Source: a virus
Lineage: Duplodnaviria; Heunggongvirae; Uroviricota; Caudoviricetes
Strand: one strand, 5' to 3'
DNA: 64,000 nucleotides
IMG/VR virus record: IMGVR_UViG_3300037312_000757
A program made the position numbers and the translations under genes. The notes beneath the pieces were generated by a model that had not been told where the DNA came from, made no database searches, and was given only the letters and a program-made list of their open reading frames with translations. Every line of letters starts with the position of its first letter. Position 1 is the first letter of the stretch. Shown in pieces: positions 9,010 to 55,703 of this stretch.

Positions 9010-10095
9010 TTAGAAATCCGCTTTCGGAAGAATAGCCTTGCTCAATGGCTGCTTCTGCTGGATCACAGTACCATCGTCCAGTGTGGAGGTCTTCTGGTTC
9101 TGGATGAAGCTTTCGAGCAAACGACTTGCCATACTCCAGTCTTGCTGGCGATAATCAAGCTCTTGACGGATCCACGAGCCATTTTCGTCCTTGCGATACA
9201 ACACGTTTGGTTCATAGTCCAGTCGCAAGTAGTAATCACCAGTCGAAGCGTTGTCTGGGAATGCATTCCCAGATCCTACTAGCTGAGCGCCGTTTGGAGG
9301 TACACCGTCACCAGCAAATACCCATGGATATTGGTTTCCAAGTTCTTCACCAGGAACGATGTAGTATTGGCGAGTTTCGAAGTAACGAGCAGACACATGT
9401 GTCTTCGCTTCCTCAACCACAGAATTGTCAATGCCCATGGTTGCGGCCACGTTTGACATCAAATCACGCAACTTGGTATCTGTTTCGAGACCAAATGGAT
9501 CCAATGCGTTCTGGCTGAGGATTTGATCGTATTCCTGGGAGTCTGTCAGTGGCTTGCACTTGATACGCCAGATATGAGGATACCAAGTCTGAGAGTAACC
9601 ATCACTTGCTCGAGTTGCGTCCTCAATGGAGTAAAACTTGTTGATCGCCTTCGCCTCAGGATCAAGCAACGCATCATCACGAAGGTGAGGGAGTTCGATC
9701 ACATCACCAGACATGAGCTTGCGCCCAATGAGCTTTATCATGTCGTTGAGGTGCAATTCAATGAAGATAGTGTCGTTGTCCAGGAAGAGGCCAAACTGAC
9801 TCAGGTCGAATTCTGAGTCCTGAATGTTGTAGATGCCACGCAGTTCGTAGACGTCTGGTGCGTAGGCTCGATCTCTGTTCTCCAGGAACAGAACATCTTG
9901 GATCTTTGTCTCACCACCAGCTGCAACTCCTGTTGGATTCCCATCCTCATCTACTCCATTGGGATCTTGGACACCAATGTATTTGTGGACTAGGACAGCA
10001 GTTCCACTGATGGAGAAGTATTCGGCTATGGAGCGGTCCAGGAACTTGTAGTTGTTGGACTTCTGTCCAGAGTTCCAGATGGATAGTTTTGGCAT
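9010..10095 (-). CDS. gp14: Neck / head-completion protein
   Basis: IQDVLFLENRDR, FDLSQFGLFL, GRKLMSGDVIELPHL; next to gp15 and gp13. Confidence 0.75.
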   Translation of the reverse strand: MPKLSIWNSGQKSNNYKFLDRSIAEYFSISGTAVLVHKYIGVQDPNGVDEDGNPTGVAAGGETKIQDVLFLENRDRAYAPDVYELRGIYNIQDSEFDLSQFGLFLDNDTIFIELHLNDMIKLIGRKLMSGDVIELPHLRDDALLDPEAKAINKFYSIEDATRASDGYSQTWYPHIWRIKCKPLTDSQEYDQILSQNALDPFGLETDTKLRDLMSNVAATMGIDNSVVEEAKTHVSARYFETRQYYIVPGEELGNQYPWVFAGDGVPPNGAQLVGSGNAFPDNASTGDYYLRLDYEPNVLYRKDENGSWIRQELDYRQQDWSMASRLLESFIQNQKTSTLDDGTVIQQKQPLSKAILPKADF

Positions 10096-10117
10096 GTGTG
10101 TCTCCCTCTTGTTGAGA

Positions 10118-10125
10118 TATTTATC
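10118..10125 (-). promoter_or_regulatory. Late promoter GATAAATA (gp14)
   Basis: NATAAATA upstream of gp14 SD. Confidence 0.65.
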
Positions 10126-10167
10126 GGGAGCTTCATATGGCTGATTATCGTGTCGTGGAAAAATGAA

Positions 10168-10428
10168 GAGTTCTGCCTGGGTTTGACATCATCCGTGAAG
10201 GGTCCCAGACCCTGAAAATGATTGATTACCTCCATGAATATTCGTTGATATTTGGTTTATAAGTGGTGTTACCACTACCAATTATGAGGAGTTCTCTCTG
10301 GGTTTATTACTATCAATGATTAGTTTGGTAACCTCCATGATGTCTTTCTTGGTATTATTCCTCACGAATAATGGTGAGTTCTCTCTGGGTTTGGTAATAC
10401 TCGTGAGTGTATTTGGTTACCTCCATGA
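10168..10428 (+). repeat. Three units of a bipartite motif: A = GAGTTCT(C/G)(T/C)CTGGGTTT, B = T(T/A)ACCTCCATGA
   Basis: A at 10168, 10289, 10376; B at 10226, 10329, 10417; AT-rich non-coding gap. Confidence 0.9.
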
Positions 10429-10544
10429 GTTCTTCGTGAGGAATTCCATTGAAGTTCTTTCATGAGGAATTGGTATTGGGAAGTGATTATTAGGTGGAAC
10501 CACCATTGTATATTGGTATGAGTATTAAATTTTGTGTGTTTTGC

Positions 10545-10552
10545 GATAAATA
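10545..10552 (+). promoter_or_regulatory. Late promoter GATAAATA (gp13)
   Basis: NATAAATA upstream of GGAGG SD and ATG 10576. Confidence 0.65.
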
Positions 10553-10575
10553 TTATGGTTATGGAGGGGGTAGTG

Positions 10576-11352
10576 ATGAACACACCTAATCAGATTAGTG
10601 GTCGTATGCGCCTGATAAAGGAATTGCAGTTGCGTCTTGGTGGTGGGATGGTTGATTTGGAGTTGGATCCTGAGCATTATGACTTGGCGGTTCAATATGC
10701 GTTGGATCGTTATCGCCAGCGTTCGACCAATTCATTGGAGGAGTCGTATATCTTTTTGGATCTTCAGCCTGAGGTGACTCAATATACGATGCCGAATGAG
10801 GTTCAGGAGGTTACGAAGGTATTTCGTCGTGGTATTGGTGGTAATCAGGGTGGTCCTCAGATTGATCCATTCAGTCTTGCTTTTTCGAACAATTTGTATT
10901 TGATAAACAATCCTGGTGGTATGAGTGCTGGTGGTAGTGGTACTTTAGCCACATATGATTTGGCGATGCAATTTCAGAGCCAAGCTGGCCGCATGTTTGG
11001 TCGTGAGTTGTTGTTTCAGTGGGAGCCGGTAAGTCATCGTATCACATTTGACCGTGCTTTTGTGGCGGTTGAGACCATATTGCTTCAGGTATGGAATACT
11101 CGTCCTGAGGAGGTATTGTTTGCTGATACGTATGCACGTCCATGGTTGCGTGATTATGCGACTGCGGTGTGCAAGCAGATGATGGGTGAGGCACGTGGTA
11201 AGTTTTCGCAGATTGCTGGTCCACAGGGTGGTTTCACATTAAATGGTGAAGCTTTGAAGACTGAGGCGGCGGCTGAGATGGAGCGTCTTGAGAAGGAGCT
11301 CAAGGATCTTATCGATCAACGTGCCGGTGGATACGGTTTCAGTATCGGATAG
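10576..11352 (+). CDS. gp13: Neck protein
   Basis: LRLGGGMVDLELD, WLRDYATAVCKQMMGEARGKF, GPQGGFTLNGEAL..EA. Confidence 0.85.
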   Translation: MNTPNQISGRMRLIKELQLRLGGGMVDLELDPEHYDLAVQYALDRYRQRSTNSLEESYIFLDLQPEVTQYTMPNEVQEVTKVFRRGIGGNQGGPQIDPFSLAFSNNLYLINNPGGMSAGGSGTLATYDLAMQFQSQAGRMFGRELLFQWEPVSHRITFDRAFVAVETILLQVWNTRPEEVLFADTYARPWLRDYATAVCKQMMGEARGKFSQIAGPQGGFTLNGEALKTEAAAEMERLEKELKDLIDQRAGGYGFSIG

Positions 11353-11392
11353 AGCTAAGTTACGAGTTCTTTTTTGGTTAATAAATACCAAT

Positions 11393-12157
11393 ATGGAACT
11401 TAAACAAAAACTTCAAAATTACTTGGTGGCCAATACTGATCGCCACAATACTAAATGGCTTAACAGTAGAGACCCTGAACTTTGGGTCTCTATTCTTAAC
11501 GCAACTTCTTTTCTCCCCGAAACAGCGGCACCAAAGCAGCGTTGTTGGCATATCATCAACGACTCGTATGCTATACCAACTTGTCCAATAACAGGTAACA
11601 ATGTTAAATGGCAAGATAATCGTTATTTGACGTATTCATCTATTTCAGCCGCTTCATCAGACCCTGAACTATACCAAAAGAAAGTAGATACTTATATTTC
11701 AAAAACAGGGTTCAAAGGACATTGGAAGAATAATCCAGAAGTTAAAGAGCAGTGTCGGGAAACTTTTGCAAAAACAAAAGCTCAAGGAAAACATAAGAAA
11801 GTTGTGCGTTCGGAAACTTGGAGAACCAAAGTTCAAGCCACTTGGGACAAGAAATATGAAGAACAGAATTTAGCTGATTATGAGAAGTATAGAGTTGTTG
11901 TTAACAAAATAACACGCAGGAATTACACAAAATATAAAAATTTGATTGAAACTAATGGTTTGACCAAGTGCAAAGAAAATCATCTAGATCACATCTTTAG
12001 TGTATCTGAGGCCTGGAGGAATGGAGTAGACCCAGAAATTGTTGGTCATTGGACAAATCTACGCGTCATACCTGCTGTGGAGAATATGTCAAAGAATGCT
12101 AGAAGTGATAAAACGTTGGAACAATTGTATGACGATTACAAGAATGCCATTCAGTGA
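11393..12157 (+). mobile_element. Free-standing HNH homing endonuclease gene
   Basis: HLDHIFS...HWTNLRVIPAVENMSKN; AT-rich; own AATAAATA at 11380-11387; flanked by duplicated gp13 3' end. Confidence 0.85.
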
Positions 12158-27364: not shown

Positions 27365-28204
27365 ATGACAACTATGACTCCAAATCCTTTGGCAAAATAC
27401 TACCGTGCGCCTGGCATCAATGTCCGTTTGCCAAGCGGGGGTCGTTTCCAACCAGAAGGTAACGTCACCTTCGCCCCAAACGGCGAACTGCCAGTGCTAC
27501 CAATGCGTAGTGCTGATGAGATGCTCATGAAGAGCCCTGATGCTCTGATGAGTGGTCACGCCATCGAATCGTGTATCAAGAGCTGCGTTCCGTCAATTCA
27601 GGATCCACAAGCTCTACCATCTCCTGATGTGGATGCAATTTTGCTGGCTATCCGTGCTGCAACATTTGGTGACCAGATGGATATCGAATGCGAATGCCCA
27701 AAGTGCAAGGCTGAGAACTCATTTGCGTTCAGTATTACAGCAATTTTGGACACAGCCATCCCTCTTGCCGAGGAATATCCAGTCCGTCTGTCTGACGAAG
27801 TGATTGTCTACGTGCGCCCTTTTAATCTGGTTACCAGCACTGCGATCAGTACACTGGCATTCCAGGAAGCACGTAAGATGCAATTCCTTGAGCAGTCAGA
27901 GGCAACGGAAGAAGAAAAGCAGCGCGAGCTCAACAAGAGCTTCGATAACATCAACGCCATGAACAACCGTTCAGTCGTTGACAGTATTCAGATGGTTGTG
28001 GTACCAGAAGGACATGTGGTTGATCGTGCCCAGATTGCTGAGTTTATCAACAACATTCCATCAGACTGGTCAAAGAAGATCGAACTGCAATTGAAGGCAG
28101 TGAATGAGGCTGGGGTTCAGAAGCAGCAGAAGGTACAGTGTGCTAAATGCGGCGAAGAATTCGAAACCAATGTTGAATTCGACCCATCGAATTTTTTCGA
28201 ATAA
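27365..28204 (+). CDS. gp26: Baseplate hub assembly / tail chaperone
   Basis: VRLPSGGRF, PMRSADEML, DVDAILLAIRAATFG, two CxxC, ends NFFE. Confidence 0.85.
   Translation: MTTMTPNPLAKYYRAPGINVRLPSGGRFQPEGNVTFAPNGELPVLPMRSADEMLMKSPDALMSGHAIESCIKSCVPSIQDPQALPSPDVDAILLAIRAATFGDQMDIECECPKCKAENSFAFSITAILDTAIPLAEEYPVRLSDEVIVYVRPFNLVTSTAISTLAFQEARKMQFLEQSEATEEEKQRELNKSFDNINAMNNRSVVDSIQMVVVPEGHVVDRAQIAEFINNIPSDWSKKIELQLKAVNEAGVQKQQKVQCAKCGEEFETNVEFDPSNFFE
28192..28198 (+). other. Putative -1 frameshift slippery site T TTT TTC
   Basis: X XXY YYZ heptamer in gp26 frame just before the stop; -1 frame open to 28428. Confidence 0.65.
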
Positions 28205-34187: not shown

Positions 34188-34292
34188 TGTATTTCTTGTT
34201 ATTGGACAAAAGTCCGTTTATTGTTTCACCAAGAGTAACGAAATATATGGTTTGTATCAATAAACCAAGTTATAGTGGCACATAATTCCACG

Positions 34293-34300
34293 AATAAATA
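34293..34300 (+). promoter_or_regulatory. Late promoter AATAAATA heading the baseplate operon
   Basis: NATAAATA 14 nt before ATG 34315. Confidence 0.65.
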
Positions 34301-38584: not shown

Positions 38585-40675
38585 ATGAGTTTCAGTTCAT
38601 TCAAGTCAACCCCATCTGGTTACAAAAACGAACCAGGTGCAGGTCGCATAGTAGAAGGAAAGATCTACATTGGTATCGTGAAGAACAATGTGGACATGCA
38701 ACGCATGGGCCGTCTGGAAGTGTATATCCCAGAAATGGGCGGCGATCCGAAAAATACAGCACACTGGTTTATCGTCAGTTACGCTTCTCCATTCGCCGGT
38801 GTTTCAGACCCATCAGCACGTGTTGCTAACTCACACCTCTACGGAGAAAGCCAACAATCATACGGATGGTGGGCAGTTCCGCCTGATGTTGAAAACCAAG
38901 TGCTAGTCACCTTCGTCAACGGTGAAGCATCAAAGGGATTCTGGTTCGCTTGCATATACTCGCAGAACATGAACCACATGGTTCCTGGTGTTGCGATTGA
39001 TAACAGTTTCGACATGAATGGTGACAAAAGCATGCCACCAGTTGTCGAATACAATAAGCTTGATCCATCAATCAACACTAACGCCCCTGTCCGTCCACGC
39101 TTTGATCCATTGGCAGCAGGCTTGGTTCAACAAGGTCTGACCTACGACTTCGAACGAGGTTCAGCGTCATCATCAGCACGACGCGAAGCACCATCACGAG
39201 TGTTCGGTTATCTGACCCCACGAGCAAACCAAGTCTACGTTGACGACAATCCAGACAACGAATTCATCCGTCTCCGTACTCGCTCAGGCACACAAGTCCT
39301 GGTACACGAAACTAATGGTTACGTCTACATCAACTCAGGTTTGGGCAACTCATGGATCGAAGTATCAGATGCTGGCGTCGATATCTACACAGCTGGTTCA
39401 ATTAGTTGCCACGCAGAACAAGACTTCAATGTCAGAGCAGATCGAAACATCAATCTCGATGCGGGTGCAAATGTCGTAGTCACCGCCGGTGGAAACATAC
39501 AGACTCAAAGTGGTATGAATACCTCCATGTCAGCTGGCGGTACTCTGAAGCTTCTATCAGTCGGCGACATGAGTGGATTGTCACAAGCACAATTGCTATT
39601 CACGGCCACAGGTAATCTGCAACTGTCAACGGCAGCAGCAATGACAGCTTCAGCTTCTGGCGATGTCAACCTGAAGGCTGACGGTAATATGGTAACCGGT
39701 GCCGGAGGTAACCACTCCACTAAGGCAGGCACGATCATCCGTCAAGCCGGCTCAATCAAGGACAACAGCGGTGCTGCACCTGATCCAACAACCGCAGCAC
39801 AAGCAACACAACCAGATGCAATCCAGGTTACACAACAAACCGATGGTGCTAATACGGTGAAGACTCCAGTCAGCCGTATGCCAACACACGAACCATGGAA
39901 AGGCCATCCAAAGTCAAAGAGCACAAAACCACCAGCTGGACAAGTGGCATCAGCTCCATTCTCACCAAATGGTCAAACAGATAGAACTTCACCATTCAAA
40001 CAAAAGCCTGGTGAAGGTACATCTAACCAACCAGATTCCACCCCTCTGACTACCGGTGACGGTAAAGCAGGTGTGATCCCAAATCCATCACTGAGCGGAA
40101 ATACATCTAATATCAACGGCTTCAAAATCCCCGTGGAAGTGATGAACGCAATCAGAAAAGCCTCCAGCATCACAGGAGTCGATATCGGCGTTCTGATGGC
40201 AATCTGCGCAACAGAGTCAGGCTTCAACCCAAATGCCTCGGCGCGACCAGCTTCAACAGCAGACGGCCTCTACCAATTCCTGGACGGCTCATGGAAAGAT
40301 ATCATCAAACGATACCCACAATACAATATCACCCAGTCCATGAAGAAAGACCCAGAAGCATCAGCTCTGATGGGCGCAGCCTATGCGGCCGAAAATACAA
40401 AAATCCTCCAGAAAGGACTAGGACGAACTCCACAACCAACTGACATCTACATGGCACACTTCATGGGTCCAGGAGGAGCTCTCAAATTCCTTAAGGCAGA
40501 TCCAACCGCCAATGCACGCTCAGTGGTACCAGCCTGGGTGGTGACCTCCAATCCAGATATCTTTAAGGTGTCATCAACAGTACAAGATGTCTACGACGGC
40601 TTCCAAAAGAAGATCGGCGGTCGCTGTGTAGCATTCGCCGCTAAAGCTAATTCTAGTGGTACCGCTACCGCTTAA
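38585..40675 (+). CDS. gp5: Central spike (gp5/VgrG-like) with C-terminal lytic transglycosylase domain
   Basis: OB fold (GIVKNNVD..RMGRLEVYIP, YGWWAVPPDV), beta-helix repeats, HEPWKGH, then ATESGFNPNA..ADGLYQF. Confidence 0.85.
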   Translation: MSFSSFKSTPSGYKNEPGAGRIVEGKIYIGIVKNNVDMQRMGRLEVYIPEMGGDPKNTAHWFIVSYASPFAGVSDPSARVANSHLYGESQQSYGWWAVPPDVENQVLVTFVNGEASKGFWFACIYSQNMNHMVPGVAIDNSFDMNGDKSMPPVVEYNKLDPSINTNAPVRPRFDPLAAGLVQQGLTYDFERGSASSSARREAPSRVFGYLTPRANQVYVDDNPDNEFIRLRTRSGTQVLVHETNGYVYINSGLGNSWIEVSDAGVDIYTAGSISCHAEQDFNVRADRNINLDAGANVVVTAGGNIQTQSGMNTSMSAGGTLKLLSVGDMSGLSQAQLLFTATGNLQLSTAAAMTASASGDVNLKADGNMVTGAGGNHSTKAGTIIRQAGSIKDNSGAAPDPTTAAQATQPDAIQVTQQTDGANTVKTPVSRMPTHEPWKGHPKSKSTKPPAGQVASAPFSPNGQTDRTSPFKQKPGEGTSNQPDSTPLTTGDGKAGVIPNPSLSGNTSNINGFKIPVEVMNAIRKASSITGVDIGVLMAICATESGFNPNASARPASTADGLYQFLDGSWKDIIKRYPQYNITQSMKKDPEASALMGAAYAAENTKILQKGLGRTPQPTDIYMAHFMGPGGALKFLKADPTANARSVVPAWVVTSNPDIFKVSSTVQDVYDGFQKKIGGRCVAFAAKANSSGTATA

Positions 40676-40706: not shown

Positions 40707-40831
40707 TCATGGAGGTTAATGATAGTCGGTAAACCCTATGGCTATGTCAAACCCAGAGAGAACTCCCTATTATTTCATGGAGGTTACCACTACTTCCTGA
40801 TAGTACGAAACCCAGGCAGAAGTCTGGGTTT
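40707..40831 (-). repeat. Two inverted units of the same bipartite A/B motif as 10168-10428
   Basis: Reverse-complement B at 40707-40718 and 40775-40786; reverse-complement A at 40749-40765 and 40808-40824. Confidence 0.9.
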
Positions 40832-40843
40832 TCCATTATCTGA

Positions 40844-40866
40844 GCATTTAATTCGATGAATAAATA
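40844..40866 (+). promoter_or_regulatory. Late promoter with upstream GCATTTAATTCG element
   Basis: GCATTTAATTCG-N4-ATAAATA, same as 55511-55533. Confidence 0.65.
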
Positions 40867-55458: not shown

Positions 55459-55532
55459 ATCCGAATATTGATAATCCTACCAAGTTTCGTTCTAATGGCT
55501 AATTATATTGGCATTTAATTCGTCTCATAAAT

Positions 55533-55703
55533 ATGGATACAGATAAAGATAAACAGACAATTGAGTCAGTAGATCCTGCTGGCGTACAAGCCACCGACCA
55601 TTTACTGATTCGAGACGTGGATTCTGGCAAGGTACTGGTTAACATCAGGAATACAGCCAAGAATCTTCCCCTAGAGGATTCCGATTCAGATGAGCAAGCT
55701 TGA
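55533..55703 (+). CDS. 56-aa virion-module protein (absent from ORF track)
   Basis: MDTDKDK...HLLIRDVDSGKVLVNIRN..., similar to the N-terminus of the next gene. Confidence 0.6.
   Translation: MDTDKDKQTIESVDPAGVQATDHLLIRDVDSGKVLVNIRNTAKNLPLEDSDSDEQA

Follow-up and report, generated by a model that had tools for sequence, protein, structure and literature searches.

A dispersed box-hairpin-box element with a one-sided strand skew: candidate DNA-synthesis initiation sites in a 523,836-bp virus genome

Which function can be assigned to a short array of two-box repeats that occupies the gap between two divergent virion genes? This question is raised by a window of 64,000 nt (the whole stretch of DNA analysed here), which represents the minus strand of bases 72518-136517 in a 523,836-bp IMG/VR virus record (G000). 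The record carries a 127-bp terminal repeat, indicating that its map is circular or permuted. In one rhizosphere sequencing run, this phage reaches a contig depth of ~11,000. By DNA comparison, the cultured relatives that can be recognised are limited to two jumbo phages, Agrobacterium Atu_ph07 and Sinorhizobium Phosso, and the hosts of the clade are accordingly probably rhizobia or agrobacteria. These two phages were used for comparison together with G001 (290 kb, ~75% nucleotide identity) and the contigs L003, L007, and L011.

A preliminary description of the window had noted a 480-nt AT-rich gap with three A-B units, and had proposed iteron-like sites for replication initiation, packaging, genome organisation or recombination. 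The gap was confirmed at 10096-10575, between the divergent genes of a virion protein and a head-tail adaptor. Its GC content is 0.37-0.43, compared with 0.47-0.49 in the flanks, and the boxes lie where they had been placed. A motif scan located box A (GAGTTCTCTCTGGGTTT) as an exact match at 10289 and 10376 and with 2 mismatches at 10168, and box B (TWACCTCCATGA) at 10226, 10329, and 10417, which reproduces the A-to-B start distances of 58, 40, and 41 nt. The A boxes of this array start at irregular intervals of 121 and 87 nt. Both boxes recur on the minus strand within 40707-40824 (box A at 40749 and 40808, box B at 40707 and 40775), in agreement with the earlier observation of inverted motifs 30 kb away; this second locus is situated between a gp5-like hub gene and a gp25-like gene. 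Over the whole window, box A shows 5 matches vs. 0.20 expected and 0 of 100 shuffles reach this number, while box B shows 6 matches vs. 0.53 expected and no shuffle gets to 6. The genes and units concerned are as follows:

9010-10095, minus strand: virion structural protein gene (phrog_11591, E 1.8e-95), on the A side of the array
10160-10184, plus strand: extended A box of unit 1 (AAAATGAA followed by the 17-mer with 2 mismatches), PWM score 40.0
10185-10225, plus strand: long linker of unit 1, with the hairpin GGGTC-CCA-GACCC at 10200-10212, which is kept in relatives via compensatory changes
10226-10254, plus strand: B box (10226-10237) and tail hairpin (10235-10254) of unit 1, from the motif scan and stem analysis
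10281-10340, plus strand: unit 2, with extended A box (17-mer at 10289-10305), 23-nt linker and B box (10329-10340)
10368-10446, plus strand: unit 3, with extended A box (17-mer at 10376-10392), 24-nt linker, B box (10417-10428) and tail hairpin (10427-10446)
10576-11352, plus strand: head-tail adaptor Ad2 gene (phrog_211, E 1.4e-33), located entirely within a zone of skewed base composition
40707-40824, minus strand: second locus with two A-to-B units (A boxes 40808-40824 and 40749-40765, B boxes 40775-40786 and 40707-40718)

Architecture and distribution of the composite element

A census of the whole genome identified 23 units at 16 loci, which form 14 clusters. The order is invariably A followed by B on one strand, and the PWM scores of the units are cleanly separated from background. 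Each unit spans ~100 nt and consists of an extended A box, a linker containing a hairpin, a B box and a short tail hairpin. The conserved part of the A box, AAWWTGRW followed by the 17-mer, is longer than initially described, and the B box follows the consensus TAACCTCCATGA. Linkers of 21-46 nt fall into several classes, with a hairpin in each, and the hairpin of the long linker covaries among eight copies from six genomes. The tail hairpin (consensus ATTATTC-GTK-GAAGAAT) is formed by many different compensating sequences, with a mean best stem of 6.44 vs. 5.11 +/- 0.18 in shuffles. In addition, the 3' end of the A box (GGGTT) is complementary to the 5' end of the B box (AACCT), and the pairing columns are invariant. 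Judged from these letters, pairing of the two box ends could close the linker and make the unit an imperfect palindrome. The predicted fold energies of the units are barely better than those of shuffles (mean z -0.55 on either strand). A box, hairpin linker, B box and tail hairpin represent one composite element with partly complementary boxes.

Several other identities of the units were considered. The previous statement that they are not CRISPR repeats stands. In CRISPR arrays, the direct repeats of 24-48 nt are identical and alternate with unique spacers of about the same length. Here, two different boxes alternate, the 21-46 nt linkers fall into recurring classes and most loci are singletons. 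Coding repeats were likewise rejected, as the frames from A to B are closed or differ between units and the same A-box letters occur in different frames; on the opposite strand, manual reading showed neither an ORF nor a ribosome-binding arrangement that is consistent. Units 2 and 3 are traversed by a hydrophobic ORF of 49 codons (10316-10465, plus strand); its frame is lost in other units and in relatives, and it is taken to be a by-product of the repeats. An arrangement of A and B as -35 and -10 boxes was rejected, since their spacing varies from 38 to 64 nt. No covariance model of Rfam 15 matched within 9900-10700 at E values up to 10.

The iteron-like array of the preliminary description was not borne out. 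Instead, the array is one instance of a dispersed composite element that mostly occurs as single units, and its own spacing of 87-121 nt is irregular. Three direct repeats in a moderately AT-rich gap between divergent genes would suit a classical single iteron-type origin confined to this gap, and the units resemble the iterons of T4 oriE, plasmids or lambda in being direct repeats in a non-coding stretch for which initiator binding has been proposed. The iterons of T4 oriE are 12 nt long and kept at syntenic sites in relatives (PMC3016281). However, iterons are short, evenly phased and confined to one place, whereas the units described here are long, irregular and scattered over the genome. 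With the element at 15 other loci, the census already contradicts a single origin; the units of the array are not helically phased, and no initiator gene is adjacent, the neighbors encoding virion protein, adaptor, endolysin, and baseplate functions. An iteron-type origin as in T4 oriE, lambda or RK6 gamma was therefore rejected, as the units form no phased cluster and single units account for 11 of the 16 loci; the probability left to a single origin in the gap is close to negligible.

The element was also detected in six other IMG/VR contigs and in some nine additional contigs from metagenomes. In a set of 39 units, drawn from at least seven genomes whose genes share only 70-75% identity, the box positions retain 1.4-2.0 bits. 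The loci are syntenic. The same neck-gene gap, whose lack of the motifs in relatives would have spoken against the preliminary description, contains two to three units in L003, L007, and L011 (70-75% identity), and the nine loci of G001 match those of G000 in identity, order and orientation. Syntenic loci carry differing linker types. Atu_ph07 and Phosso have no element, and their equivalent gap comprises only 68-81 nt. In L003 (1700-2100) and L007 (minus strand, around 10200-10500 of the reverse complement), a further repeated word (CCATGGAG ... GTCACTAG) lies between units of the syntenic array; in the window, this word is not readily recognised. The sole pattern match in a bacterial genome, a Bacteroidota MAG, lacks the extended boxes and the skew and was regarded as a chance match, as were three matches in GC-rich metagenome sequences.

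Two units are located in frame inside ORFs, one in the UV-endonuclease gene uvdE and one at the 5' end of a viral Pol-beta-type nucleotidyltransferase-like gene. The uvdE unit (G000 27727-27815; L040:1228-1316) is complete and represents no insertion relative to the Pfam profile. It is conserved near letter-for-letter between G000 and G001 while the remaining uvdE is 78% identical; such conservation demonstrates that the nucleotide sequence itself is under selection. The nucleotidyltransferase-like ORF (G000 166266-167270; L039:1267-2268) is open through the whole 5' unit, also in G001, and alignment with its homologs in Phosso and Atu_ph07 starts no earlier than residue 73-76, past the B box. 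The B box and tail of this 166-kb unit are the closest to consensus among all copies, and the ORF overlapping it has no match in Pfam, PHROG or PDB. With no database match and with homologs that align only past the B box, there is no evidence for this gene product as the initiator.

These conservation data also bear on whether the element might be a selfish palindromic repeat of the MITE, REP or RPE-like kind, homogenised by gene conversion and unrelated to any skew. The palindromic body of MITE, REP or RPE repeats is present, as the partly complementary box ends (GGGTT with AACCT) form an imperfect inverted repeat around a hairpin. The units are found in both orientations relative to genes (A-to-B direction the same as that of the flanking genes at 166 kb and 342-469 kb, opposite at 67, 95, 197-308, and 522 kb), they occur twice in frame inside ORFs, and the differing linker types at syntenic loci suggest exchange between copies. 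Mobility is contradicted by G001, with its identical loci, order and orientation, and by the uvdE copy, which has no insertion footprint against the Pfam profile. Moreover, positions, orientation and copy layout are kept between genomes of 70-75% identity, the boxes are far better conserved than nearby synonymous sites, even inside uvdE, and neither an even spacing nor a strict tie to a one-sided skew would be expected of such a repeat. We consider this origin of the element highly improbable.

Indeed, the distribution around the genome is even. When two close pairs are merged and the uvdE-embedded unit at 27.7 kb is counted as the 14th cluster, the 14 clusters are separated by 28.5-54 kb around the circle with a CV of 0.215, and 0 of 200,000 random placements match their minimum gap or CV. 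With the 16 unmerged loci, the spacing yields P = 1.75e-4. The gaps between loci of G001 amount to 25.8-43.3 kb. The density of sites is similar to that of T4 origins, of which there is about one per 35-40 kb.

One-sided strand skew downstream of the element

The most prominent property of the loci lies outside the units. At 14 of the 16 loci, the A-to-B strand has a strong excess of G+T over the 0.6-1 kb that follows the last B box. In a profile of 15 loci, all of them G+T-rich on this side and examined before the uvdE unit was found, the first two 200-nt bins downstream show a mean GC skew of +0.28 and +0.31 and the AT skew reaches -0.24, compared with values of ~0 upstream. Of the 22 600-nt windows with the most extreme skew in the genome, 14 fall on these zones, with strand and side as expected. 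The uvdE unit (27.7 kb) has no skew though it is conserved, and that of the unit at 374 kb is weak. Relative to the genome, the base ratios of the zones are 0.72 for C, 1.20 for T, 0.91 for A and 1.16 for G; mean GC content drops slightly, to 0.43-0.44 in the first 200-400 nt downstream vs. 0.46-0.47 upstream. At several loci, the skew forms a plateau and then falls sharply after ~1 kb. Two zones are located in the window:

10430-11380, plus strand: G+T-rich zone (A-to-B strand) of the first array, the maximum-sum segment from after the last B box
39709-40522, minus strand: zone of the second locus, with G+T in excess on the minus strand (genome 95996-96809)

At the first array, a GC skew of +0.25 to +0.42 and an AT skew of about -0.22 extend over 10300-11350, values return to baseline at 11350-11650 and the skewed stretch ends at the next gene. 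At the second locus, the zone falls within the part of the plus-strand hub gene that codes for lysozyme (SLT), a domain comprising residues 522-610. The skew is greatest at third codon positions, whichever strand is coding: the third-position keto skew in the zones reaches +0.47 in genes on the same strand and +0.35 in those on the opposite strand, with a background of ~0. For the adaptor gene, third positions show a GC skew of +0.58, an AT skew of -0.61 and a keto skew of +0.60, compared with a keto skew of -0.01 for the A-side neighbor of the array, the virion structural protein gene. The keto skew of adaptor orthologs is +0.41 to +0.61 with the array and only +0.14 (Atu_ph07) and +0.09 (Phosso) without it. 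The same one-sided skew was observed in element-bearing relatives and metagenome contigs and is absent at the chance pattern matches, which serve as an internal control. The whole Atu_ph07 genome contains weak skew windows only (maximum z 4.2), few of which combine GC and AT skew. The zones themselves are mutually non-homologous by blastn. Since third positions are skewed on both strands, the zones are non-homologous and orthologs differ with the presence of the array, the skew acts on the nucleic acid and not on the protein. The direction of the base shifts is that predicted for deamination of DNA that is often single-stranded, which suggests this as their source.

GGAG and Chi-like words are commoner on the A-to-B strand of the zones, with GGTGG counts of 0-8 between loci. 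The excess of GGAG is attributed to the base skew together with the low genome frequency of this word. Three of the most extreme skew windows, within 514.2-517.4 kb of G000, have no A or B box; the windows at 514169 and 515729 are G+T-rich on the minus strand and that at 516786 on the plus strand, forming a divergent pair around 516.5 kb. This pair could represent a different, two-directional initiation zone.

Selection instead of mutation might produce the zones if the elements served genome organisation as binding sites of an architectural or insulator protein and the downstream sequence were selected, for example, as Rho-loading RNA that stops transcription into the element. Even spacing and highly conserved boxes are what such sites would show, and the opposite strand of the zones is C-rich and G-poor. 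A Rho-loading site requires on the order of 100 nt, however, and not 600-1000 nt of selected synonymous sites, and ribosomes would shield the RNA from Rho in genes translated toward the element. Selection for G-rich RNA or for C-rich Rho-loading RNA is further disfavored because it would leave the A/T asymmetry unexplained. This explanation is considered quite unlikely.

Relation to promoters and transcription

The units had been described as neither promoters nor terminators, and further analysis agrees with this. No sigma-70-type promoter and no convincing terminator were found in the gap or the units, the hairpins being devoid of a terminator T-run, and the early-promoter consensus of this genome is absent from the units. 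This consensus, TTGACT-N5-GTTCATATGAAC-KTATCAT, is found, for example, at G000 291805, 311243, 318781, 329625, and 365242. It includes an operator-like palindrome between its -35 and -10 boxes, which suggests that early transcription is controlled by a shared repressor or regulator. HTAAATA ranks first among the upstream motifs of the genome, and three late-promoter-like words of the window are located near the arrays:

10117-10125, minus strand: late-promoter-like GATAAATA, reading away from the array, ~50 nt before the first A box
10545-10552, plus strand: late-promoter-like GATAAATA that belongs to the adaptor gene, located 98 nt past the array and reading in its direction
40859-40866, plus strand: late-promoter-like AATAAATA, reading away from the second array and belonging to repeat family D2

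As both flanking genes of the first array thus have their own T4-type late promoter word, the boxes are not the late promoters. Repeat family D2 is a 32-nt repeat that ends in the late-promoter word (CATTTAATTCG..ATAAATA) and is found at 34269-34300, 40835-40866, and 55502-55533 of the window. It occurs in the upstream regions of three late genes and extends the late promoter upstream.

The strand asymmetry might be explained without any role in replication if the element were the start site, and hence an unrecognised promoter class, of abundant RNAs of ~0.6-1 kb, with the skew caused by transcription-associated damage of the non-template strand. The sign of the skew is that of a non-template strand, its onset lies directly past the B box, the abrupt ends of the zones at several loci are transcript-like and the zone in the window coincides almost exactly with the adaptor gene. 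Nevertheless, no sigma-70-type, early-type or, except at the window array, late-type promoter was found in the A-to-B direction, and transcription would gain nothing obvious from sites spaced evenly at 28-54 kb. Such RNAs would be sense at some loci and antisense at others, with half of the zones antisense to real genes, including the one in the SLT domain of the hub protein. Furthermore, the third-position skew of 0.4-0.6 lies far above the transcription-linked asymmetry known to us. Taken together, these points make a purely transcriptional explanation unlikely.

A closer connection to late transcription is seen at the arrays. At all four late-region arrays (67, 95, 126, and 522 kb), a late promoter is located 19-50 nt before the first A box and reads away from it, compared with ~0.1 such divergent cases expected by chance. 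Single units have no late promoter within 400 nt, and a late promoter in the A-to-B direction exists only at the three-unit array of the window. Arrays, unlike single units, may therefore be tied to late promoters. In Geiduschek's work, T4 late transcription reportedly needs clamps loaded at nicks or forks. The element might accordingly be a site-specific nick or clamp-loading site, at which a phage nickase would cut the A-to-B strand, limited displacement would expose the downstream strand and clamps loaded there would activate nearby T4-type late promoters. The four of four arrays with an adjacent late promoter (~0.1 expected) argue for this, and the polarity of the skew fits displacement from a nick, with the 5' end at the element. 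On the other hand, most loci have no late promoter within 400 nt and the adjacent late promoters point away from the array. The T4 rule requires the nick in the non-transcribed strand, and under this rule the strand is wrong at the 40.7-kb locus. A nickase candidate was not identified. A role restricted to nicking or clamp loading is, all in all, regarded as very unlikely.

Candidate initiation sites and comparison with known systems

We tentatively interpret the units as members of one family of sites, defined by their sequence, at which DNA synthesis starts in a single direction and which would serve as replication origins or origin-like priming sites; our confidence in this falls just short of even. 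Within the proposals of the preliminary description, replication initiation has become the favored reading on the basis of the even spacing and one-sided skew, in the form of dispersed sites and not of a local iteron origin. In this model, a phage or host factor would recognise the ~100-nt unit, and nucleic-acid synthesis would begin in the A-to-B direction. The A-to-B strand of the following 0.6-1 kb would be displaced and remain single-stranded for long periods, either as the non-template strand of a persistent R-loop, as a strand displaced from a nick or as the lagging-strand template before helicase-primase loading. C-to-T and A-to-G deamination changes would then gather on the exposed strand and result in an excess of G+T. 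From the sequence patterns, we infer that the skew is probably mutational and reflects single-strandedness, with DNA replication, and not transcription alone, starting at the element.

The skewed strand has its 5' end at the element and runs 5' to 3' away from it. Breakage followed by 5'-to-3' resection, which yields 3' tails, is excluded by this 5' end; the earlier suggestions of packaging and of recombination by break and resection do not fit the polarity. An R-loop, displacement from a nick or a fork leaving in the A-to-B direction would all be consistent with it, and skew polarity together with even spacing points to one-directional initiation of DNA synthesis.

Several observations count against the origin reading: there is no recognisable promoter for a primer RNA, the fold z is only -0.55, long-range skew is missing and two loci have no clear skew. 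In addition, strong transcription alone gives a skew of the same sign. Outside the zones, the third-position keto difference according to element orientation is 0.03 for plus-strand genes and nil for minus-strand genes. The missing long-range skew is not decisive, because T4-type phages replicate mostly via recombination-dependent forks (PMC3016281).

The closest comparison is provided by T4 itself. Its origins share no common sequence motif and several are poorly defined (Kreuzer and Brister, 2010; PMC3016281). Two of them, oriF and oriG, consist of a MotA-dependent middle promoter and an AT-rich unwinding element; synthesis from them is one-directional and the downstream non-template strand is single-stranded (PMC3016281). 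The element resembles oriF and oriG in its length of ~100 bp and in the presence of several copies per genome, but differs in the near-invariant boxes and hairpins shared by all copies, the even spacing and the skew island of 0.6-1 kb at each site. In searches for sigma-70-type promoters and the early consensus, no primer-RNA promoter of the oriF/oriG type was found in or beside the units. As far as can be judged, the element would work most like an R-loop or strand-displacement origin that lacks this promoter feature.

Other systems share single features with the element. The mitochondrial D-loop represents a standing displaced strand with a deamination skew. At human CpG-island promoters, R-loops and origin choice have been linked to a displaced non-template strand that contains more G than C (PMC4412123). 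These systems are eukaryotic or organellar, do not contain a box-hairpin-box element and are not evenly spaced. In T4-like phages, PeSL cassettes combine an early promoter with a terminator stem-loop (PMC2839356; PMC4122927); they are located in hyperplastic regions and mediate gene swapping (PMC4122927). Like PeSLs, the element is a dispersed, conserved, composite intergenic motif with a stem-loop in T4-like genomes. Unlike PeSLs, it is found in conserved late-gene gaps and inside genes, is syntenic and is accompanied by a one-sided skew. An assignment as PeSL cassette was rejected, as the units contain no early promoter and no terminator T-run and their loci are syntenic and not at indel or replacement borders.

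Compared with known multi-origin phages, it is unusual that the sites share an element, that they are evenly spaced and that synonymous positions bear a strong footprint. The complete, regularly spaced set of candidate initiation sites is marked by one conserved element. It is conceivable, though on present grounds doubtful, that this clade possesses a replicator system without phage precedent, in which ~14 even, one-directional sites would carry standing displaced strands and late arrays would couple replication to late transcription. By analogy, and with similar reservation, such shared box-hairpin-box sites might be comparable in logic to yeast ARS elements. The local skew distorts the codon usage of core genes, including those of the adaptor and the hub lysozyme domain, and can thereby mislead gene callers and codon-adaptation analyses. 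If the origin reading is true, origins in this clade would be predictable from sequence alone, and the A and B boxes would provide a handle for finding the initiator.
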